DNA from: Catajapyx aquilonaris | Taxonomy: Eukaryota | NCBI GenBank assembly: GCA_000934665.2 | Contig: KZ538897.1 | Location: forward strand, 1 to 41,748 | Direction of reading: 5' to 3' | DNA: 41,748 nucleotides | Shown here: positions 5,410-33,160 of the stretch, one piece after another | How the letters are laid out: the number at the start of each line of letters is the position of its first letter | Numbering within the stretch: position 1 is the stretch's first letter | The notes under the pieces: model-generated | The model's input: only the letters and a program-made list of their open reading frames with translations | Databases searched by the model: none | Told to the model about the DNA's origin: nothing | Translations under genes and position numbers: made by a program

Positions 5410-6398
5410 GCACAGTATACCCTTGCCTGGTTCACTCATGACATCGGTGTTTAAAACAATGATTGATTGTAGAGCAGCACGATGCTATCGCCAGAATGCC
5501 AAACGAAGCGAGCCCGATGACATATTACGTGTATTCATTTAAAATTCTGGCTGATGTGACCCAATTTAAATGGAGAGAGACGAATTTCCATTGTTGGTGG
5601 ATCTCCCCGAGTGCAACGGAAAAAGGCAGACGAACAATTTTCAGACTCAACAAAAACCTTGATTGGTCTGGCCTGAAATGATGTCCGTAGCATTCACCTC
5701 CAGGAGACATCGCCCGCAGTATAACAAAAGGCCTCGTGCGGACAAATAATTTAAAAAAAAAAAAAAAAATCGAAATCAAACATTGATTTCAAGCCCGGTT
5801 CTTGGCCTGCCAGGGACACATTCGGAATGATAATTGAGACACACACTGGGAATGGAACTATGCATTGTGGACCACTGCAAACGGACCGCTTGAAACATGC
5901 GTTCACTTTGAGGCATACGAACAGAGTGAGAATGTAGGCGTGTGGTCAGTGAATAGAGGTCCAACATTGGATAGGGGGAAAAAAAAGAGTATCGCATTTC
6001 CTGGTGTGCTATACGGTTGCCAGGGAGCAGTTTTGCGGTTGACCACCACGTTGCGCCACGTATTTCCTCTAGGATAGGAGACATTGCGAACCCCCGAAAT
6101 TGCATCAAGTTCAACCCATGAAATGAACTGTGAAACCCACTGACAGGGAGACTGTACAGTAAAAGGTTGAGTGATTTTTTTCCCCCCCTCTCTGGCTTTG
6201 TCTCGTAACCTGTGAAATTGTGTTGGTGTGACCTTTACGCGTTGCCATGGTAGGCTGTTTCATTGAGTACACCCTTTATCATTGCTGGACTATATTGATG
6301 AACGTAATCAGGTTTTATTGACACCGATTAGTTGACGCAATATTTCGCGTATTATTCATAAGGGTGACTGTTTTCTCAGATTAAATATGTTTTCTCAG

Positions 6399-6779
6399 AT
6401 GATGAGGACAGCCGTGACAATTGCACTGTCATGGTGTCTGCTGGCTATGTTGGCCACCGCCTGTCTAGGCAACGGAGACGATGACGACTGCAGCCTGGAC
6501 AAACTCCGGTGTGAGCTGATATGCACATTCCAGGAGCTGGGTGTTCAGTGCGCACGCTGCCAGTCCAGGATGCCCATGCGCTTTGGAAAGAGGAGCCTCC
6601 GAGGGAGGCAGTCCAAGCAGCAGGGTCAGGAACAGGAACAGGCCCTGAAGCAAATGCTTCCATCTGTCCAGGAACCTACGTACTCGCAGAGACCACCAGA
6701 TGACAATAGTAATTCGGAGGTGCGATCTCGCACTCGGCTTTACTTTCCGAACTTGGGTAGGAGATCAGGCTGGGATTAA
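6399..6779 (+). CDS. CCRFa: CCRFamide neuropeptide precursor (126 aa)
   Basis: Signal peptide MMRTAVTIALSWCLLAMLATA, then Cys-rich CLGNGDDDDCSLDKLRCELICTFQELGVQCARCQSRMPMRF and GKR (amidation plus cleavage). The Cys pattern and PxRF-amide end fit protostome CCRFamides. AATAAA at 6940-6945. Confidence 0.88.
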   Translation: MMRTAVTIALSWCLLAMLATACLGNGDDDDCSLDKLRCELICTFQELGVQCARCQSRMPMRFGKRSLRGRQSKQQGQEQEQALKQMLPSVQEPTYSQRPPDDNSNSEVRSRTRLYFPNLGRRSGWD

Positions 6780-8463
6780 CATTAGTTGCGTTCAATATCT
6801 ATCCAATTCGGATTTTAATGGCTGGTATTACACAAACCGTAATTTTCTGGTCGCAAGTTGGTGTCACTTAAACGTTTTTACATGTCTTTTTATTTTGATC
6901 AGTTTGTAGGTTATGTTGTAGAGTGACGCATTGAGATATAATAAATAGCCTGTCATCAGATGTGGACTTTATCAATTATTTTTGTATCAAGTGGTCTGCG
7001 CTGATACCTTCTCCGGTATTACTGAAGCTGCTGACACCACGATACATTCTTCTGTAATAATGCCATGTATGTTGAATACACTCATTAAACATGCGACGTG
7101 GATTATTTGCTTGCATTTCCCAGAACCTCTTATCATTCCATTTTAAACACGAGTACTATGATATGTGTAAAACCAGTACAACTTATTATGATGGGTAACC
7201 GATGGATATGTGAAAATGACTGTCTTTCGGCTTTATTACTGACAGCACTCGTGTGTTACTTTATAATTAGCTAATGTCCCTCTCAGCGACCAAACACAAT
7301 GACAGGTTTGTTGTTGGGGGGAAAATGCCCTTTGTGTACGAGCATATACGTATGTTGACAAAAGAAATAATAATTGCTTCTAGTTTCATTGTAAATATTT
7401 ACATGGCGATAACTAAGCAAATGGAATAGACCTACTGTTGCGTGTAAATATGAGGTTATGAATTTTTTTTCTCATTATCTCAATATAGCTGAGGCTCACA
7501 CAGCACAGGTAATATTAGATCACGTTACTTATTGCCAATAAATATTCAACTGGTGGACATTTTCGACAATGCTTATTTCTTCTTTATTGCCACATATTTG
7601 TATTTGTACAGCTCTATGACGATCACAATATCATTTACGTACGTAGCTGAAATAATTGCACATACACTATTTTAGTTAATGACGAGCAAAAAGTATTAGG
7701 AAAGCGAAAATTCTAGTAAAACAGGCTTCCGTTAAGTATAGGGTAACTAAGAAATGATTTTAGGAACATTTTTATTTCAATTAATCTGTAGCTGATAAAA
7801 CATGCTCTGTGGCACTAGAACTTGAGGAATAGATTGCGGTAACCGTGGCTCTTCTATAGGCCGACTTCTACCGTAGAATAGTTGCGTAGGAGGATGAAAT
7901 CTGAAAATGAAGAGCGGGGCAAGTCAGGACCTTATTGTGCACCAGGCTCATTAGCGAAGCCTGCTAATTAATGCCACAGGTAGAAGAATCATTCGTTACT
8001 TTTCCAAGCTGGAAAATAATACAGGCAAGGCTGTGCTGCTTCAGGTAGTTTAGGTGAAGTCGTAAGCTATATAATCGCGATATACGAAGAACAAGCGATA
8101 AGAAAGCCTCAAGAGAACATGCGCAATTTTAGTACTTGAGAGCAGATGCTAAAAGGTTGAAAGTTTAGCAATTAGGGATTCTGCGGTGCTTGAACTTTGC
8201 ACTTGCTGGTAAGCCAAGGAGAAAGTATGAGCAAAAGAAGCATCTAACACAGCTTGACAAATGGAGCAGTTTGCGATGATAGTATCATTTTCATGAAAGT
8301 CTGCAAAGATCCCAGGCAGAATAATAATATATTGCAACTCTTGATAACTGTAGGAGATTAATCTGTGAAGCAAACGACATCAGTCCCACCACCGTCATTT
8401 CCCGTCACCAGAGATGGCCAAATTGTTGTTTTACCTGGACCGTTTGGGACTAATGATGGTCTG

Positions 8464-9238
8464 TTATTGTCCACGTCTGTGCCACAAGCGGAAAAGAGGC
8501 ATTGGCTTACGCATATGGCCTCTATAATGGTAAGATCTCTTTCCAGGATTGATTGGGTTAATATTTCCGCCATCATTCCAGCAATCGTCACCCAGGTTTA
8601 CGGTACTGCAGTCTCTCTTTCCGGGAGTTGGTCCGGGCAGATGCCCGTTTGAGGTCTGTCCACCGCTGGTCCACTGGCCATTTTGACAAGCATCGGGGTC
8701 ATCTGGGTTGAATTCGCAGTCTCTCTTTCCAGGGGTAGGTCCGTGCATATGTCCGTTAGCGGTACCGGTTCCTGTGCCTGTGCCGCAATTGTCATCGGTG
8801 TTCAGAGGGTCGCAACCTCTCTTTCCCGGTGTAGGTCCATGTTTGTGTCCATTAGCAGTGCCTGTACCTGTAGCTGTTCCTCCGCAGTTGTCATCGGTGT
8901 TCAGAGGGTCGCAGCCTCTCTTTCCCGGTGTAGGTCCATGTTTGTGTCCGTTAGCAGTACCTGTACCTGTACCTGTTCCTCCGCAGTTGTCATCGGTGTT
9001 CAGAGGGTCGCAGCCTCTCTTTCCAGGGGTAGGTCCAGGCAGATGTCCGTTCGCAGTTTGGCCACCACTGGTCCACTGGCCATTTTGACAAGCATCGGGG
9101 TCGTCTGGGTTAAATACGCAGGATCTCTTTTCAGCGTAGTTGCCATGAAGATCATGCAGTCGTGCCAGAAGAATGGCCAAATGCTTGTAGCTACCTTGGC
9201 AACGACCTCCAGGACACAATATTTCAAACGCCCGTTCT
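8464..9238 (-). CDS. Cal-B: Calcitonin gene, calcitonin-B alternative exon with six paracopies (precursor 322 aa when spliced)
   Basis: Acceptor ttaacctgcAG|A completes the phase-2 codon CA from the shared exon, in frame. Six KR-flanked peptides each have an N-terminal Cys pair and a C-terminal P-GKR. Confidence 0.88.
8614..9123 (-). repeat. Coding tandem repeat, units of 108/99/99/96/108 bp
   Basis: Units 9123-9016, 9015-8917, 8916-8818, 8817-8722 and 8721-8614. The three middle units are near-identical, as are the two outer units. Confidence 0.9.
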
Positions 9239-9882
9239 CTGCAGGTTAAATGAGGAATCGAAATAGCTGCGTGAATAATCGCATGCAAGGCGTGCAAAAG
9301 CTGGTTATGAAAATCAGTACAGTAATAAAAATATGGGTGTAAAGGTTAGTAGAGACAAAAGGCTAGAGTATAGGTTAACGCGGCACCACAGTCCACAGGT
9401 GGCTGGTGGCTGGTGGTGGCATGTAGTGGCTGTGTCTCAAAAACGGAACATGCAGGCTGAATAGGCGTGTATCCGCTGAAGGTAGGTCTGTATCCGCAAG
9501 GAAAGGGGGTTAGGTTAGGTTAGGTTGGTACAGCATACCCCTTCCCCTGCCACATTCGGTTTGTCATTACGAAATCCAAACAAAATCAATACTTGCAGCC
9601 TTGCGTTTGCGACACAGCCACTGCCCCCGTCCACTACTCGCCCTCCCGACTTCTTCGGTGCCTCTCTACCCTACTCCTTCCAGACAAAACGACATCAAAT
9701 GTTGGCAATGCATGTGGCGTGCAGTAAAGTCAACTCAACATGATGTGTCCGTTACATGTCGGTTATTAACGGACACTTCATGATGAACCAACGACATTTT
9801 CGACTCTTCGTCAGACACTACATCCTACCAAGAGAAAAGAGAGAAATGGCTATGAGGTTTTGGGACGTGTTTGTCGTGTCCC

Positions 9883-10111
9883 TCAAGCGTTGTGGGATTG
9901 CTGCTGCCTGAGGAGCGCCCACAGGGGGTGCTGGGAATGATCATCCGACGCCTCTGAGCTGGTGGCGTCAAGAGCCTGGTCCGGACTGCGACGACGACGC
10001 TTTCCGGGAGAGTCTGGGGATACCCAGTAGGCTGCTTGCTTAGCGGCGTCCAGTCCTTCCTTGTAGTCGCAGCTCTGGGACATCCCACCGTTGAACAAGC
10101 ACGTCCTCTTC
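9883..10111 (-). CDS. Cal-A: Calcitonin gene, calcitonin-A alternative exon (precursor 140 aa when spliced)
   Basis: Acceptor tttgctattAG|G gives Q-KR-TCLFNGGMSQSCDYKEGLDAAKQAAYWVSPDSP-GKRRRR, matching the arthropod calcitonin-A pattern (TC..N.G.S..CDYK...YW....SP-amide). Confidence 0.92.
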
Positions 10112-10376: not shown

Positions 10377-10466
10377 TGAACACTGTCCATGTCGTGCTCC
10401 ATACCATCGATGATCCTTTTGACCAAGCCTAGAGCTTTTCGGTTGAGTTGGATACTTCTTAGATGC
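10377..10466 (-). CDS. Cal: Calcitonin gene, shared propeptide exon
   Basis: Encodes (R)HLRSIQLNRKALGLVKRIIDGMEHDMDSV(Q). Donor CA|GTAAGT is phase 2 and compatible with both A and B exons. The acceptor is NAGNAG (10469 or 10466 start, both in frame). Confidence 0.85.
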
Positions 10467-10793
10467 CTGCTCAGGTCCGTAAGGATCGGATTGCCAAGAG
10501 AGTAAAGATTATACAAGTAAATTATGCGTAAGCGTCATCTGGAAACTGAAATTCGGAGAATTTTTGTTAGTTTCTTGCGTAACACCCTGCAGAAGACGTG
10601 GGCGTTCTTCGACACGCACTAGCTGCCACCTGTACTGTGCAAAATGTGAATACAAATAAATTGATTTCCATTACTGCCAGGTGGCATGCAATATCTTCCA
10701 GGTAACCTGGTCATATAAATTTCCTGACCTATACTAGAACAGCTGAAAGTTCGGGAACTGAAGGCCACAATAACCACTAAGGGCCGGTTTCCC

Positions 10794-10948
10794 CAAGCCC
10801 GGTTTTCATTTTTAAAAAACCGGTTCTTTCGGAAAATCCCTGCAAATAGAATAAGAATTTTCCGAAAAAACCGGTTCTTTCGGAAAATCTCTGCAAATAG
10901 AATAAGGATTTTCCGAAAGAACCGGGGTTTTTATGAAAACCGGGCTTG
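10794..10948. mobile_element. Palindromic MITE remnant with an internal tandem duplication of about 50 bp
   Basis: caagcccggttttcat ... atgaaaaccgggcttg arms enclose two copies of aaccggttctttcggaaaatc(c/t)ctgcaaatagaataag(a/g)attttccgaaa. Confidence 0.7.
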
Positions 10949-12362
10949 ATGTTTATTTTAACTTTAAAAACTGCTCTGTTAGAGGGGGAAAAGCAATATG
11001 AGAATGGGATATAAAATGTTTCTTTTTATTCCTCCTGGCCCAATCGTAATCCAATAGTCGCATCGGTGATTCCATTCTAATTTGTTGAGTGATTTACCAT
11101 CTGAAACGAATGGCAACAATTTTGTTTAGACCCGACTGTCACTGGGTATTAAGGCAGCATCGATGTAAGTGTCGGATTCAATTGGCCCTAGGAGGCATCG
11201 TCTAGAGTTCAATAGAAGAGAGTGGCACTTCATATTTAGGAAACTTATAGCTGTCATTCCATTCAGCGGTTCCAATAATGTGGTATTATTATGCGGCGTG
11301 CAATTGGCATTTTGCTGACTATTGCAACCTAATTTGTTTTGATACATCCGAATTTTCTGTATTCATTGTAATCTTGACCCCTTATCATCATTTCGACCCC
11401 GATGAAAGGATTTCCCTCCCTGGTCCTCCCCCGTCGTCAATCTATCTATATGAAGATTGAGCGTCACAATAACCGCACGGACTCCCCCGAAAACGAGCCA
11501 TAAAAGTAGAAGATGGCTCGTGGTTCAGGTCGCCATAAACAATGAACGCAGTCAATTGATTCCATGCAAAGTTTGTTCACCGTAATCGGAGGGTGGGTGC
11601 TGTAAATAACGTTACAATGGTGGCAAATGAGGCGGAACAGGCCATAGATCACCCAGCATGGCTCCATCCGACATTATGTGCTTGCGATCAAAACGATATG
11701 GCAATTGGGCCAAGCAGGTACTTATCGGAGGATGCAATTGAATTAGCAGGGTTTATTAGGACTCAACCGGAAGTGGACTTGATGGATTAGCAGGTCGGAT
11801 TGTAGGCTGCTCGAGGTACAAAACGGATCTAGGCGAGCGTCTTGTTGTCCGGAGAAACCCCTAGACGAGGCTCATCATTCCAGGTTTCCTAGTTCATTAA
11901 ATTAACAGCTTGCTATATATGCTGAGGCTATCAGTGGTTGAACAGGAACTACTTCGGCCTCTTCGCCACTTAGCACATTCCGCCAAGATTTATGGCCGAC
12001 GGCAGAATGTGCAACAATTCGGAACTTTGGGAGGTGGCCCAGTAAGGCCCAGCAATTTACTAGGGGGGTATTAGTTAACAATTAGCAACTTCCTGTTCCT
12101 TAATTTTTATGGCGTAAGACTCTGTATAGAGGGTGTTACTGATTAAAATGTTATTTAGTGGGTAGAGAGATTTTGGTACTGAGCTGCTTATTTATTGCTA
12201 GTATTCGATGTTAATATTAATCCCTGCACAGATATGCAAAAGTGGGTTGTATCATTGTGTTTCATCTGTTGTTCCAATGGGCCATTCATAATAGTAAAGA
12301 ATCCCTTTCAGTATGGATTTTACGGTAGGCCTGTATCACGATTTGTTGGAAGTTATTTTAGA

Positions 12363-12667
12363 TCTATATAAATAAAGCCGTTTGTGAGTCTGTCTGTCTG
12401 TCTGTCCGCCTGCCAACCGTCATTTGCCTACCATCTGTGCTCAACCCCCAGGCCGGGAGAGGATGGAGGTGTTGGGGGTTGACTACAGATGGCAGGCAAA
12501 TGGCGGTTGCCGTTATACAGGCGGGAGAGGTTGGAGGTATTGGAGTAGCAGTACCACAGATGGCATTGGTGGGCTGACACACAGAAAGACAGACAGTTGA
12601 CGGGGGTACTGGCAGGTGTTTTCCCTTCATTCATTTCTTCCCGGGCAACGCCGGGTGCCGCAGCTAT
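12363..12667 (+). mobile_element. Non-autonomous Helitron, copy 2
   Basis: 5' A|TCTATATAAATAAAGCC, (GTCT)n, 3' hairpin cccgggcaacgccggg then gcagCTAT (altered CTAG). Highly similar to the 18180 copy. Confidence 0.85.
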
Positions 12668-13380
12668 CTTAGGTAAAGCAAAACTTAGTTTTGAAATATT
12701 ATGTCTATGCAAAAGTTAGTGCGGTTTTTATGAAAAATAGAAAATCTCAAACTTGTTTGCAAATATCAAAATATTGAGCAGAACTTTCAATGACCCTTTG
12801 GCAACGTTAGGGCAGCTGATGAATGCCGCGGTGGTAAAAACTTCTGGACTTTGACTCAAAGAAGTCAACCATCAATTTCTCAACATCCGTGAGACTGGCG
12901 AAGTGCTCGCCAGAGAAGCCATGTTGCATATAATAGAAATGTCTTTTTTGTTGCTATCGCTCTGGTTTTAAAAAAATAACGAGAAAACAGTGGCGAAGGT
13001 GGGTATTGTCGGAGTTAATCTCGAAATCTGATAAAAAAACAGTGACTGATAGAGCAGTATTCTTCAATTCATGTGGGAGGATTACCTAGTAGAAAATATG
13101 TCGAAATTTGGTTAAGCGCATTGCAAAATATATCCTGCGTGATGATACTGTCTCGCAACACACTTGTTTCGCAACATTATCATTTCGCAATTTAGTGATG
13201 ACAGAAACTCGTCAAATACGTTGTGGAGACACCTACTTCATAAGGCGGACAATCGATTGGCATCGACTAGTCAAATGTGACGCAGAAAGTACAATCATAA
13301 TATATTAATGTACGCATGCCTCGTGTCCCTGGTATTACACTGAAGGAGTGCAGTCGAGTTTGAAAGGATCTACTGCCAAG

Positions 13381-15261
13381 ATGAAGATTTACGGTGTAGG
13401 AATTGTGTTAGTGTCATACTTCTTAACCGGTTGTGAAAGCAATAGCAATAGCACTCTGGACAAACTGCTAGACTTTATTATACCAACATTCCCTCCTAAC
13501 TGTTCCGTAGTATTTGTGCTTGACCATACAACACGTGACATTCTTGGATCCATCTATCAGTATGAATCTTTAAGTTACCGGCCTTGGTCTATACTTATTG
13601 TCGATCCAGATGATGATGTGACTTATGAATACTCGGTTTACAACGGTCAGTGCAATGTGTACGTTTTCATATGCTCACAAGACGAGTGTCTCGATGCCGA
13701 TCTTCCGATGAGACGAAACATAGACTATTTTGTGATACACCTGACTGATGAAAACACTAAATACCTGCCAAGTTCGATAGGTAGCAGGAACATCCTTTTG
13801 ATTGAAACCGATTTAGATGGCGATCAAGTAGCAGGATATAAGCTGATTATACCTAGCTCAAAATGCCCATATGACCCTAGCCTGACTCAACTGACCTACT
13901 GGCATCCCAATGACGGTTTATCTCGCTATGTTCGGGATTTCTTCCCATGGAATTCCTATCATGACATGGCTGGTTGTGAGATGACATCATGCACATCCTC
14001 TTCTTTGGATATGTACTTATTGCATACCATTGCTACTTCAGTCAATATGAAACTTTCTATCCATGAGTGCCGAGATTCCGATGATATATTTCGTGCAAAT
14101 ATATTGATGGGACTTCCGGCTAGCTTATGGGTGTTCAGTGGAATACGACCTGCGTTTGGAGTTGACATGAGTTTCCTGATACCCAACACAATACAACCGA
14201 AATTCAGTTGGATTTCTCTGCTAAGGTGCTACGAACCCTGCTTATGGTTGTATTTTCTGATCATAGTGCTGGGATCCGGAGTCTTCATTTGGATCCTGAG
14301 TAGTATAATCAGATCAGTATCACGAAGGAAGCCATGGGAAGGCAGCAGCTTGTCTTCGGCCATGCTTTACTCCGTCGCGATCATTCTTCGACAACGTCGG
14401 CCTCTTACCTATCACACGGCTCCGCGGTGCTACATTGGATTCTACTTGTTATTTTGCCTCATGATCTCAGGTGTCTATATGCGTGCTTTGATCAAAACTC
14501 TGACAGTGCCTGATGACATGACTGACCGGTTGCCATATATGTTGTGGGATCTAATGGAAAGTGATGTTTACAACGTGGCTAAAACCGTAAAAGCATCCCT
14601 TCTGATTGGTAGTAACGACTACTTTCAAGACAGACTAGACCAGTACAAAGTAGATGATACATGCTTGGAGAAGCTACTCGAAGACGACAAGGCAGTTTGT
14701 ATTGGCTCAGTCGACCAGTTGTCTCATTTTTCCCGAGAATATCCTAACAGAAAATTCCATCATGGTCAGCTATTCTTAACCGGAACTCCAACCTTCTGGG
14801 GATCAAAAGTCATACCAAACCTGTTGGATGCGAAGTTGGCGGGTCTACAGAATTCTGGGATTGTTGAGTACTTTCGTAAGAAGGATGACTTTGAACGAGA
14901 GGAAGTTGAGGATTGGAGTCGTCCGCGAGTAGCTAAGATGGAATCATTAAAAGGAGCCTTTTTGGCTTTGGTAGCAGGGTGGATAATTTCTTTGTCTTTG
15001 ATTATCCTAGAATTGATGATATCCTGCGTATGCAATGTCTCACGAAAGTTACTAAAGAAAGGTGCCGCAAATAATGAGCCAGAAGATACGGAATTCATGG
15101 GCGGTCTTGTGGTAGAAAATGTCATTGTTGTTGAGGACATTGTACCAAGTCCGGAGGCAAAAATTAGGCCCATGACAGTTGTCGGCTTCGTATATGAAGA
15201 CACTGAAGAATCCGAAGATGACAGCTCAACTCCATCTCATAGACGCTCTCTGAGTTTCTAA
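13381..15261 (+). CDS. Intronless divergent ionotropic receptor (variant iGluR, chemosensory IR), 626 aa
   Basis: Signal peptide MKIYGVGIVLVSYFLTGCES; pre-M1/M1 LLRCYEPCLWLYFLIIV; pore loop MLYSVAIILRQ; M3 RCYIGFYLLFCLMISGVYMRALIKTLTVP; S2 end LQNSGIVEYF; M4 SLKGAFLALVAGWIISLSLIILE. The first ATG is 13381 (the track start at 13348 is GTG). Confidence 0.9.
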   Translation: MKIYGVGIVLVSYFLTGCESNSNSTLDKLLDFIIPTFPPNCSVVFVLDHTTRDILGSIYQYESLSYRPWSILIVDPDDDVTYEYSVYNGQCNVYVFICSQDECLDADLPMRRNIDYFVIHLTDENTKYLPSSIGSRNILLIETDLDGDQVAGYKLIIPSSKCPYDPSLTQLTYWHPNDGLSRYVRDFFPWNSYHDMAGCEMTSCTSSSLDMYLLHTIATSVNMKLSIHECRDSDDIFRANILMGLPASLWVFSGIRPAFGVDMSFLIPNTIQPKFSWISLLRCYEPCLWLYFLIIVLGSGVFIWILSSIIRSVSRRKPWEGSSLSSAMLYSVAIILRQRRPLTYHTAPRCYIGFYLLFCLMISGVYMRALIKTLTVPDDMTDRLPYMLWDLMESDVYNVAKTVKASLLIGSNDYFQDRLDQYKVDDTCLEKLLEDDKAVCIGSVDQLSHFSREYPNRKFHHGQLFLTGTPTFWGSKVIPNLLDAKLAGLQNSGIVEYFRKKDDFEREEVEDWSRPRVAKMESLKGAFLALVAGWIISLSLIILELMISCVCNVSRKLLKKGAANNEPEDTEFMGGLVVENVIVVEDIVPSPEAKIRPMTVVGFVYEDTEESEDDSSTPSHRRSLSF

Positions 15262-16520: not shown

Positions 16521-16794
16521 CAGGGTGTTAATCCTAGGCGTGTCACCAGAAAAGGTGGTGGTAGAGGGCGCAGGTGTGATCATTTTTGAGTAGGGAACTA
16601 GGGGTCGGAAACGCATCCTCACCGAGTCACTCCGCCGCGTGCCGCACGCCTCTTGCACACTGCCTGCCGCAAACTTGAAAGGGGCGTACTCGGTGAGGGT
16701 GCGTTTCCGACCCCTAGTTCCTTATGCAAAAATGCTCACACCTGCGCCCTCTACCACCACCTTTTCTGGTGACACGCTTAGGATTAACACCCTG
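16521..16794. mobile_element. Tc1/mariner-type MITE (274 bp)
   Basis: TIRs of about 110 bp beginning CAGGGTGTTAATCCT, with TA on both sides. Confidence 0.92.
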
Positions 16795-17569
16795 TATTGC
16801 ATCTTCATGATTTGTGAGTGAAATATCTGCATTTTTTGAACTTGTCACTTTATTTGTTTGACATATTCTTCCTGGAAACATACAGTACTGTAATCTAGAT
16901 GTTGTGGACAACTGAAAAAATAGTTTGCATTTTGTATGCAGAATTTATCATTTTCGATTATTATTCACAGACTGTCAGGTAACATGTGGCTTTAACTTTC
17001 TTCGCCAAGAGCCTTCACATGACATATTCAAATGTGGCGCTTGAGGAAATGGCATCCTGTTAAGATACGTCCTGTCGCTGTCGTGTGCGAGCTCATCGCG
17101 TTGTAAAGAATATTCGTACCATAGCACATGATATCCGGCAGTCCAGCCATAATCGAGTAATTTGTAGATCTAAATTTCTATATTGTAATTTTTTACGTTA
17201 CCCCGTGATAGGGCCAGAAGCCCTCTTAGGGGGGTGGAATACCACAATTTTCTATCAATTTTCTGTAATTTTCTTCAACTCCGGTGCAAAATTTTCTATA
17301 TTTAATTTATTGTTTGCATGTAGCATCATATGTAGTAGCCTAATCATGCTTTCATATGGTACCTGTATACTTGAAATTCTACGCAATAAAGTGTGCAAAC
17401 TGGAAGGCGTGTCATTTAGAGTACATGAATGAGAGCGTTGCCATGGTGTAAAAATTGAGTCCTGATCCTCTGAGGATATAAGAGTTAGGGAATTAGGAGC
17501 GATCCCAGCAGGCACTTGCCTCGTCAGCGTAGAGAGGAAAAGGAAAGTCCCTTACGGAATAGATCTCAC

Positions 17570-17673
17570 CTGTCAAACATGTCGCCATAGCTCTGGGCAT
17601 GGCTGGTTCCCAGGACGAAGCAGCCCAAAATGAAGAAGCTGCACAGCATTGGGATGTGGAGGTGTCCCTTCAT
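17570..17673 (-). CDS. Cal: Calcitonin gene, first coding exon (signal peptide)
   Basis: MKGHLHIPMLCSFFILGCFVLGTSHA-QSYGDMFD, then AG|GTGAGA (phase 2, matching the shared exon to give Arg). Acceptor cgtttcAG precedes exon start 17702. Too short for the ORF track. Confidence 0.78.
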
Positions 17674-18179
17674 CTTCGTTTCCTTGCCGATGATTACTAG
17701 ATCTGAAACGAGCCAATCAGAACTGATTTCGTTGTTTTATATACTTAATTTTTCTTCACATGTTTTATAATTGATGAATTCGTTAACGGTGGCAAAAAGG
17801 CGTTAATGTCCTAGGTCATTTTCATATCGACAGCTTTCATTGTATAAGCCACGGATTGTCCGTTGTTGCATGGTCTCTGTATAGGCTCTTTTTTTATAGA
17901 TCTGCTTCATGAGTGTCACGCGTTGATAACGTGGAAATGATGATATTTATACTTACAGAGTTCAACTAATCGCGTCGCGTTGTCAGCTTTGCAAAATTGC
18001 ACATAAGTGAATTCGTGTGTAGAAACACGGAAGAGTACCTTCATGAATCAAATGTGTACAGCCTACTAACCATAATTTGTTGGTAAAGAGGTAAGTAGCT
18101 GTAACCGCTAACATGATCATTTCAGTATTGCGGATTTATTTTAATTTTGATAGGAAAAGGCGAGAAATAATTCCATATA

Positions 18180-18489
18180 TCTTCTATCTTCTATATAAAT
18201 AAAGCCGTTTGTGAGTCTGTCTGTCTGTCCGCCTGCCAACCGTCATTTGCCTGCCATCTGTGCTCCACTCCCAGGCCGGGAGAGGATGGAGGTGTTGGGG
18301 GTTCACTACCGATGGCAGGCAAATGACGGTTGCCGTTATACAGGCGGGAGAGGTTGAAGGTGTTGGAGTAGCAGGATACAGATGGCATTGGTGGGCGGAC
18401 ACACAGAAAGACAGACAGTTGACGGGGTTACTGGCAGGTGTTTTCCCTTCATTCATTTCTTCCCGGGCAACGCCGGGTGCCGCAGCTAG
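18180..18489 (+). mobile_element. Non-autonomous Helitron, complete copy 3
   Basis: Inserted between A and T; 5' TC, 3' hairpin cccgggcaacgccggg and terminal CTAG; no TSD. Confidence 0.9.
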
Positions 18490-21400
18490 TAACGACATAA
18501 ATTCGTAGTGCTATATCAAATCTGAATAGTACATTTGCTCCTAAGTCAGTGAATTATGTATACAAGCATATTGTGTTTCTACGTCAATTTTAGTAACAAA
18601 ATAACAGCCCTCTACAAGTCTATGATTGCCCTATTCAATCTATCACTTACGTTTACGATCAAAGGTATGATATTCATAAAACTTCCGCTTGTATGATTAT
18701 CACACGTATTTGAACTTCGAGAGAGTTTTGAAACACTGATTAATGGCCGATCTTGCTCACGGCCAATTTTCACTTTATGTATCGGATAATCTGATATGGG
18801 AGGATTTAATATAGGCCTACATCCTCCGACTATAGAACGTAGGCGGCGGAAGTGATAAAAGTCATCAACCTTCTCTCGCATTAACTAGCAGACCAGTGTA
18901 ATAAAACATTTAACTAACACTCAGATTCAGTGCAATATTATGAAAGAATAACATAAAGTACGATGATCAAAATTCAAGCCGGAGAGGTGTGGCAGACTCC
19001 CTGTTGTAATTGATGTGAAAAAATTGATATTGGACTGCAATCTTTATCGATTACTCTATTTTGATATGGAGAATGAAATTACTCAAAGTTGATTACTCTG
19101 GAAGCAGTTGTGACGTAGGTTATCCCTTGTTGGTTTCCAGGCACAGACTCCCAATAGAGTGTACTGTATCTAAAAAACCAGAGCCATTTGGATGGAAGGC
19201 AAGCGACGCAACCTTTAAACAATGCGATTTCAAAGGGAATCGGATTTCAGTGATTAACAGTCAGACATTTTAAATCACAGGTGCAGTGCATGAATTTTAA
19301 AGGAGGACGCAAAAGCCTGTGGATTAAACGTTTTAAATGTATTCATCACTTTGAAGGACGCAAAAGCTACAAACTATAGTAGAGATAAGCTCGTTTATAG
19401 AGTTTTATATGCGACGTATATCTTCCTAGTTTGTCCTATATGTTCAACTGCGTAACTTTTCATTGTGTAACTCTACTAATTTGCTAGACGTAATTATTAG
19501 GCAAGTCAAAGAATAAAATTATAATGACTTCCAACAAAGTCTGAACTTCGGGGAAATTTTTTGACGAATATTTAAACCCGATTTTGAAACCTTCCCTTAG
19601 AAAATTTTGTGTTAATGGTTCTGGCCTAATTTGCAAACGACTCATTTGAATCAACTTTTCTCGGCTACGGAGAAAGCCGGATAAAAATAGGCCAATCCAA
19701 CCTTCGCTTGCGATTGAAGAAATGCTCTAACTTTTCCTTCTTCGACAACCACAACTTTTGAACAAGCAGAAACCAAGGTCCTTCGATGCACGTAGACAGA
19801 TGCTAACTAAAGACAAAAGAAAATGACGTACTTGTCAACCTGTTTAAGCACATTCTTTATACAAACTGGTAGCATACCAATTCGTCCGAAACAAATTCGT
19901 CCGATGCAACCTCGCCAGATCCATTCTCGACACTTAATTCCGATTAACTCGCCAATGCGATGGCTGCTCCAGTTGCATCTATATTATTAATACCCTACTG
20001 TGATGGCGATTCCTCCCGCTATGTACGGCCTACAGCATTGGAAGTGATGTCAAAATTTCGCCCGCGTGTCCTATATTTGCAATAAACTTTTTTTTTTTGG
20101 AAATAGTGTCTAGGGAAATTATAAAACACAAAAAACGCCGACCGCCTTAAAAAAAACAACCACCACGGAATTCCCATTCCGGCCGCGGGCGCTACCTCCG
20201 GTATTCACCGGGTAATTCGGTAATTCGCCGTCGGATATCGCTGCCTGGTCCGCGTCTCTCTCAAATTTTGGCAAGTTGGTGCCTAGTATAGTCATATCCA
20301 CCGTGGTAATAACGCTCAAAATATTTCGATTGAACCAAAAGTCGACTTAATTATCCAATATTGGATTACTCATAAGCATCGAACACGCTACACTCCACAC
20401 CATACTAAAGAATTATTGTTAGAGACCTGAATACTTAAGAGGACTCATTTACATCCGCTTGGCGACGTTACAGCTGGTAACATTCTGCATTAGTGTTGAT
20501 CCCCAGATTAGTAACAGCATATGAACCCGAATCGAAGCGCCTGCCGTAGCTTATTCATCCCTCTTCATCCGCAGCTGAAACCACAAGGCCGGTACTTCAT
20601 CCCTAATTTTGTACTTAGCTCTTACAAATTTGGATTTAGCTAAAGATATACAAACAGTATTAGAACCGGTTTTTAAAAAATAGTATTTTGGAAGCATATC
20701 CGCGTGGGGATGTTCGGTTAGGCGAGGAATAATTTATTGCGCAACCATATCAAAGATGATTGTTTGCTTGCGCATCGCTGCCGGTGGACACAAAACCACG
20801 GCTTTGAGATATGCCAGTTTAGCAACATTAGTTACACCTCGGTGAACACAGGTTCTTAGGTAGAAGCGAGTTCCGCCCCGTGCGTCTTTATTTCCTTCGA
20901 GTCTTCCGAGGCCAACCATTCCTCGTTGGAAAATACTGCTTCTGAGAAACTTCCTAACTTGCTCTGAGGGTTTTGCTCTCATGTTGCTTGTACGTTGGGC
21001 CTTCATAAACCGAATCGAAATGTCTTCCGTTTTGAAAAGTTTGGAGGAATTCTGTAAGACTTATTGGGTCATACGATATCCGGCTGTTGCTGAATTATTA
21101 CATAAACTAGCAAATAATATGACTTATGGTGTGGTATTAAACGAGAAAACATGGGAAGTAGCTAATATTACCTACCCAGTGCGGATGCATCATAATGATT
21201 GATCAGTTGGACGAGGTAGGACCCGTGGGTATAACCATTTTTTTGGGATCATTTTTGTTGTGGGAAATAACAACCGCTTTTTCATTGTGGCAAAGTTGCG
21301 TGAATACGGGAGAGAAAAATGATTATTATTCATATCGATCGAATTATGGTAATGCTGCCATTTCCTTGCATTTCACTCGTAGGAATCTTGGGGTCGGAGT

Positions 21401-24587: not shown

Positions 24588-24772
24588 CTCACTTGTTGAT
24601 CAAATGGGGAGATCCCACCTGTGGCTTGGATGGATGCTACTGCCTCTGGGCTAGAAAACCCTGATAATGTGATGACAAGAGGGGGTGGTCCAGTGATATG
24701 AAGGAAGGAGTGCAAGGGGGGATAGATAGATACTTTGGGGCTGATCGAATGCGCACTGGGCTGCTTTTGGCA
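24588..24772 (-). other. Putative non-coding first exon of the calcitonin gene
   Basis: ATG-free stretch starting about 30 nt below a TATA box and ending at donor GAG|GTAAGG (24587). The next clear minus-strand exon is 17702-17570. The TSS is approximate. Confidence 0.5.
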
Positions 24773-31528: not shown

Positions 31529-31550
31529 NNNNNNNNNNNNNNNNNNNNNN
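31529..31550. other. Assembly gap (22 N)
   Basis: N run next to a poly-C tract at the palindrome centre. Confidence 1.
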
Positions 31551-33130: not shown

Positions 33131-33160
33131 NNNNNNNNNNNNNNNNNNNNNNNNNNNNNN
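33131..33160. other. Assembly gap (30 N)
   Basis: N run inside a poly-G tract. Confidence 1.

Follow-up and report, generated by a model that had tools for sequence, protein, structure and literature searches.

The window, by which we mean the whole stretch of 41,748 nucleotides analysed here, contains a minus-strand frame (9237-8467) that encodes six peptide units in the order X1-Y1-Y2-Y3-X2-Z, every one of which follows a KR and closes with P-G-K-R. This frame lies in the calcitonin-B exon (9238-8435, minus strand) belonging to an arthropod calcitonin gene, which also carries a calcitonin-A exon. We see a known hormone gene with a known architecture, not a new kind of system, in which the tail of the B peptides is a divergent variant. 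A preliminary description had read the exon as calcitonin B expanded into six paracopies of three types, X-Y-Y-Y-X-Z. Its translation was reproduced, and the units, their sizes and their KR/PGKR borders were all found; the identity of the exon was also borne out, as the same gene carries an A exon and the Cys pair, Pro-amide signal and single KR sites are present.

Gene structure and splicing

Five sequencing runs cover the window, none of which is recorded as RNA, and the contigs of four of the five were compared. Three of these are DNA runs from one sample, while run X5 comes from a second study and sample, with library type and tissue not on record. Contigs of run X5 bridge four canonical joints (17569/10465, 10376/10110, 9829/7900 and 8435/7900) that are missing from all three DNA runs. 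Because these contigs bridge the joints, we see that the A and B exons are both spliced to a common last exon.

All exons lie on the minus strand, all splice sites of the gene model are GT-AG, and the phases match. The 5′ untranslated exon (24588-24747, 5′ end approximate) has a GT donor after 24588 and a TATA-like TATAAAA nearby at 24802-24796, and a loose end at 17704 in run X5 is an exact match to 24590-24619. The signal-peptide exon (17570-17702, with ATG at 17673, the hydrophobic core CSFFILGCFVL and a phase-2 donor) is common to the A and B transcripts, and a 293-nt contig of run X5 terminates at 17570. A propeptide exon of 90 nt (10377-10466) is delimited by the run X5 joints 10465/17569 and 10110/10376; a longer middle exon, starting from an acceptor at about 10538, was rejected, as it runs into a stop immediately and the run X5 contig uses 10466. 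The calcitonin-A exon (9829-10111, stop at 9885-9883) encodes one peptide of 33 aa with a C-x9-C ring (10104-10006), which terminates in DSP-GKRRRR, and its product is 64% identical (E 4e-8) to a barnacle precursor, P0003, the only candidate returned. The calcitonin-B exon (8435-9238, stop at 8466-8464) encodes a propeptide, the six paracopies and a basic C-terminal peptide; it has a GT donor after 8435 and is represented in run X5 by the joint 7900/8435 and by contigs 8435-8695, 8671-8845 and 9073-9238. The untranslated last exon shared by A and B (7571-7900, AATAAA at 7588) is covered by a run X5 contig at 7571-7901 and joined at 7900/8435 and 7900/9829. Neither the A nor the B peptide exon gave a Pfam match over the cut-off. 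Within the reach of our searches the calcitonin gene is single-copy in the genome assembly (G000), a search of which found no second calcitonin-B gene.

The preliminary description implied a transcript joining 10377 to 9238, but the contig sizes in run X5 fit a join of 17570 to 9238 instead. A k=31 graph was modelled from the exons of the window, and the predicted contig sizes were compared with those of run X5. With the B exon joined to 17570, the graph yields contig sizes of 331, 290, 175, 196, 432 and 293 nt, which reproduces all six run X5 contigs listed for the calcitonin gene; with the B exon joined to 10377, it gives 342 and 383 nt in place of 432 and 293. On this modelling we strongly infer that the B transcript is joined 17570 to 9238, a joint that is not itself among those listed for run X5 (15 of 20). 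The main B form likely skips the middle exon, because the 17570 model reproduces the observed contig sizes, and the 90-nt propeptide exon would likely be confined to the A transcript. Contigs drop rare variants, so the modelling speaks to the main B form, and a minor join to 10377 is possible. The B precursor that results from the signal-exon join has 292 aa. According to PMC4237046, the termite B precursor is likewise without the middle propeptide exon, and our data extend this type of splicing to a probably early-branching hexapod lineage.

Several other features share the window. Tail-to-tail with the calcitonin gene lies a second neuropeptide-like precursor (6387-6779, plus strand) with a signal peptide, a four-Cys peptide and a PMRF-GKR end, which we take to resemble CCRFamide; a run X5 contig spans 6403-6777 of it. 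Antisense to the calcitonin gene, inside its 7.1-kb intron, there is an intronless frame of 650 codons (13309-15261, plus strand) with a Lig_chan domain (E 9e-8), likely encoding a divergent ionotropic receptor. Interspersed repeats occur at about 396-671, 12362-12666 and 18184-18510, the first and last of which are recognised by similar frames, and further repeats at 9460-9680, 10760-10950 and 16550-17260 have very high DNA depth, as does 12362-12666. Short TTAGG-type runs are found near 9510-9530, and N gaps at 31529-31550 and 33131-33160.

Sequence and evolution of the six-unit array

The two X paracopies (X1, 9025-9123; X2, 8623-8721; all units on the minus strand) have 33 aa and a C-x9-C ring. 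The Y paracopies have C-x8-C rings, with 30 aa in Y1 (8926-9015) and Y2 (8827-8916) and 29 aa in Y3 (8731-8817), while Z (8545-8613) has 23 aa, a C-x8-C ring and a 12-residue tail. Counted after the second Cys, the tails of X1, Y1, Y2, Y3, X2 and Z comprise 21, 19, 19, 18, 21 and 12 residues, respectively. The Cys pair, from which a disulfide is predicted, and the Pro-amide signal (P-G followed by basic residues) are present in all six units. The pattern KR.?C-x6-10-C-x8-25-PG[KR]R occurs seven times in the window vs no occurrence in 100 of 100 mononucleotide shuffles, and the seven matches fit the six units plus calcitonin A. PGKR-x-C is found at all five internal junctions; a single KR directly after Pro-Gly, near the next Cys, is described as a mark of calcitonin B in PMC4237046. 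Calcitonin A has one peptide per precursor with a stretch of basic residues behind it, a trait that does not hold for the six units but does hold for the exon at 10111-9829. DH31, the calcitonin-like diuretic hormone, has no disulfide bridge and is encoded by a separate gene (PMC4237046), and is excluded here because all six units carry two Cys residues.

Five of the six peptides, namely the X and Y units, have T(A/S)NGH..GPTP as their C-terminus, with the last 11-12 residues in common. Type Y further has an H-x-H pair plus a linker of Gly and Thr; aromatic residues are absent from it and its tail is free of acidic ones, while its ring retains an acidic segment, NTDD. The predicted [M+H]+ values of X1, Y1, Y2, Y3, X2 and Z are 3365.43, 2849.20, 2863.21, 2795.12, 3439.40 and 2430.01. 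Upstream of the array, the B propeptide (9237-9130, minus strand) has a small C-x4-C loop (CPGGRC) ahead of an L.RLH helix; this loop may be released as a peptide of its own or be what is left of a former paracopy.

The DNA units had been called near-identical and recently duplicated. This is true of Y1 and Y2, which are identical at 96/99 nt (three differences, dS 0.08), but not of X1/X2 (92/108) or Y1/Y3 (83/96). Values of dN/dS were 0.05/0.78 for X1/X2, 0.02/0.75 for Y1/Y3 and 0.04/1.01 for Y2/Y3, the last with one codon set aside for an indel (Fisher p <2e-6 for each pair), so that the ratio is 0.03-0.07 in like-type pairs other than Y1/Y2, at dS of about 0.75-1.0. Y1/Y2 is thus the only recent duplicate, and the other like-type pairs are old and under strong purifying selection. 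The types split once and have been conserved since, and the data contain no ongoing diversification within types, which runs against the earlier suggestion of a diversifying ligand set. In the last 14 codons, X1 differs from Y3 at 5/42 positions vs 8/42 from X2, small numbers that hint weakly at tails being homogenised by exchange among the units.

Candidate receptors, proposed function and copy number

The genome has at least 17 HRM and at least 58 7tm_2 matches, counted exon by exon, with the ectodomain of the receptor spread across several exons. Of these matches, our comparison covered 11 stretches from nine contigs. A compact gene on contig C1483 (about 41.6-44.0 kb) is the putative calcitonin-B receptor, and a gene on C366 (about 38-53 kb) the putative calcitonin-A receptor. 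These assignments come from comparison by eye with sequences in the PMC4237046 supplement: C1483 agrees at 23/49 residues of one segment with GPCRB-7 of Zootermopsis, its putative B receptor, and shares with this receptor ITDGPR..LDI.RVL.TKL (19/29 residues), while C366 agrees with the termite putative calcitonin-A receptor at 36/48 residues of the same segment. When the genome was searched with one C1483 frame, five matches were returned from ten candidates, namely C1483 itself, C366 (42%) and three weaker ones. No paralogue closer than C366, and no sign of receptor expansion, turned up in this search, the counts of which are lower bounds. Judged from these similarities, a single receptor, the faster-evolving one, likely serves all six ligands. 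Other class B1 receptor genes are found, for example, on C33, C3084 and C4364, and on C55 (38.7-55.3 kb) a pair of similar class B1 receptor genes (L033 and L034) occupies opposite strands, each facing the other, and looks like a local duplication. As of PMC6585902, the calcitonin-B receptor had not been formally deorphanised in insects, and our literature search found, by title, no publication reporting this.

We consider that the B exon probably gives rise to six peptides that signal as gut hormones through a single calcitonin-B-type receptor. By analogy with the family, the 292-aa precursor would be cut at KR, amidated at P-G and have its rings closed, releasing two X, three Y and one Z peptide. 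Class B1 receptors are generally described by a two-step binding model. Following this model, the T(A/S)NGH..GPTP-amide end of X and Y would be held by the ectodomain of the receptor, whose core would be activated by the ring. The array would mainly raise hormone output, mixing agonists that differ somewhat in potency or stability, and the His tail would be a local replacement of the usual acidic-aromatic tail, matched by the fast-evolving C1483 receptor. Y and Z may be poor agonists, given that Y is without an aromatic residue and without acidic residues in its tail, and that the tail of Z has 12 residues. Expression would be expected in midgut enteroendocrine cells, where calcitonin B has been located in the locust (10.1101/2021.07.28.454216), and work on decapods also suggests expression in the gut (PMC4888303). 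In two tenebrionid beetles, PMC9552230 reports that calcitonins were undetected by mass spectrometry in CNS samples.

The three types might instead be pharmacologically distinct, with X an agonist and Y and/or Z a partial agonist, an antagonist or the ligand of another class B1 receptor, the precursor then delivering a 2:3:1 cocktail. Each type is kept separately by purifying selection, X and Y have rings of unequal size and distinct linkers though their last 11-12 residues are common, and the genome has several other class B1 receptor genes (C33, C3084, C4364 and C366). However, a single B-type receptor was found, other calcitonin-B precursors also have mixed types for which we found no reported separate role, and the tail DNA of X1, being nearer to Y3 than to X2, hints in its small numbers at exchange across types. 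We regard this reading as unlikely. Quite unlikely, too, is a wholesale rewiring of the ligand-receptor interface, in which all six peptides gave up the family-wide acidic-aromatic tail (five of them for a His-bearing one), the single receptor co-evolved to recognise the change, and selection maintains three pharmacologically different types (an agonist together with a partial agonist/antagonist or second-receptor ligand) that one precursor in the gut sets free at a constant 2:3:1 ratio.

As no listed contig spans the array, and Y1 and Y2 differ at only 3/99 nt, one might ask whether the copy number is an assembly artefact, with Y1 and Y2 as alleles of one unit or with further Y copies collapsed; the sequencing data make this very unlikely. 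Pieces from the three DNA runs and from one run of another study show 0 differences at the array ends. A tandem Y1-Y2 model predicts a contig of 175 nt at 8671-8845, whereas a model with alleles of one unit predicts 180 nt, and the 175-nt contig is among those listed for three of the four sequencing runs (runs X1, X3 and X5). DNA depth in two bins over the array, relative to the flank, was 1.13/0.67, 1.02/1.13 and 0.91/0.85 in the three DNA runs, which share one sample; a depth of 0.67-1.13 of the flank indicates that there is no large hidden expansion. Checked in this way against the contigs of the sequencing runs, the repeat count agrees with six tandem units; six copies are supported, and one extra unit of the Y1/Y2 type is possible. 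It is highly improbable that the Y copies act outside hormone signalling as secreted effectors, such as His-mediated metal binders or defence peptides, for which the H-x-H pair, the Gly/Thr linker and the want of an aromatic residue, all kept by selection, might speak: there is one copy of the gene, laid out canonically with A and B, Y retains the ring, the NTDD segment and the Pro-amide, and D+E (3-5) exceeds K+R (0-1) in all six peptides, unlike cationic antimicrobial peptides.

Both the function of calcitonin B and its pairing with a receptor are inferred in the literature (PMC6585902, PMC4237046, 10.1101/2021.07.28.454216). A natural variant that is without the most conserved tail segment, that has a new tail under selection, and whose putative receptor gene is present offers a test of this pairing, and could show what region of the peptide is recognised.

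Comparison with known calcitonin-B precursors

Database searches returned no relative of the array. A protein homology search with the whole B frame gave none of 8000 scored candidates at E<=10, and one with residues 170-236 gave none of two candidates. Searching 1.84 billion representatives with phmmer returned no calcitonin, the single match (P0004) being an unrelated 2511-aa repeat protein with no GKR, and the ESM Atlas gave no usable match. These blanks have no meaning for novelty, because the same libraries returned no known insect calcitonin B. A literature search, outside which lay subscription papers, figures and bioRxiv supplements, found no published description of such peptides in early hexapods; one supplement file of PMC4770511, searched as text, had no motif matches, and calcitonin A and B are missing from the precursor list of that paper.

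As to lineage, the presence of calcitonin A and of a CCRFamide-like gene argues against Holometabola, going by PMC6585902. No match to PDF was found over the cut-off, and PMC4770511 gives PDF as absent in Protura and Diplura; CCAP here is PFCNAFTG, unlike the collembolan or campodeid forms in the same source. The want of a PDF match and the form of CCAP would fit, weakly, an early-branching hexapod.

We compared the six units by eye with 32 published B precursors (termite and other sets of 6 + 1 + 1, 19 beetle rows and five decapods), having dropped two Tribolium repeats and a Homarus fragment without a tail. Acidic residues followed by W, Y or F in the tail are found in at least one copy in 32/32 published precursors, vs none of the six units here, so the earlier remark on tails without such a segment holds; this acidic-aromatic tail is our own reading of the consensus, and the text of PMC4237046 does not state it as defining. 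The rings had also been called atypical, which applies to type X, as a ring of nine is unseen among the 32 B precursors, but not to Y and Z, whose rings of eight fall inside a published range in which seven residues are common and eight occur sometimes (C-x8-C in Lepismachilis, Aethina, Oryctes and Aleochara); ring size, too, is a consensus trait that the text does not give as defining. The His-containing tail is not in itself unusual, since His is known in the tails of decapods (EDSHF) and beetles (WLHG). Nor are the copy number and the mixing of types, which Ramulus, Anoplophora B1, Leptinotarsa and Nicrophorus already show; beetle calcitonin B has from one to seven copies, and its precursor ranks, in beetles, among the most variable (PMC6585902).

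The gene most resembles that of the termite Zootermopsis nevadensis as described in PMC4237046, where one gene has a common signal exon and a common last exon, the A exon encodes one peptide with several basic residues after it, the B transcript leaves out the middle propeptide exon and has several Cys-ring/Pro-amide copies with single KR sites, and there is one putative receptor per type. The termite differs in having three near-identical copies with x7 rings, as opposed to six copies of three types with x8 and x9 rings here, and a DDDYF-type tail in place of T(A/S)NGH. Calcitonin B of Lepismachilis y-signata (Archaeognatha, PMC4237046) shares a C-x8-C ring whose first Cys is preceded by a single residue and, as in type X, C.NGQW past the second Cys and a tail of 21 residues, but has two copies and retains the acidic-aromatic DGDYF. 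The entry named 'Locusta Calcitonin' in the precursor list of PMC4237046 is identical in sequence to the Lepismachilis entry of its Suppl. Fig. 5, and we assign the C-x8-C sequence to Lepismachilis; Table 1 of that paper gives a different Locusta B.

Decapod B peptides (PMC4888303) have an (F/L)NLGD ring motif that resembles both Z (NLGD) and X (FN..D..AC), and a tail with (G/A)NG, to which two species add a His (EDSHF); homology with the NGH found here is possible. They differ in being single-copy, in sharing the propeptide exon with A, and in keeping an x7 ring, acidic residues and Y/F. The L.RLH propeptide ahead of the first KR resembles that of several beetles (PMC6585902). Closest in copy number are Ramulus B, with six copies of which two are without Cys (PMC4237046), Anoplophora B1 and Leptinotarsa B, each with two interleaved types, and Nicrophorus B, with seven full copies (PMC6585902). 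All four have six or more paracopies, as here, and three of the four have interleaved types; however, where their second type has lost the disulfide and kept the acidic-aromatic tail, the present array has kept all six rings and lost the tail.
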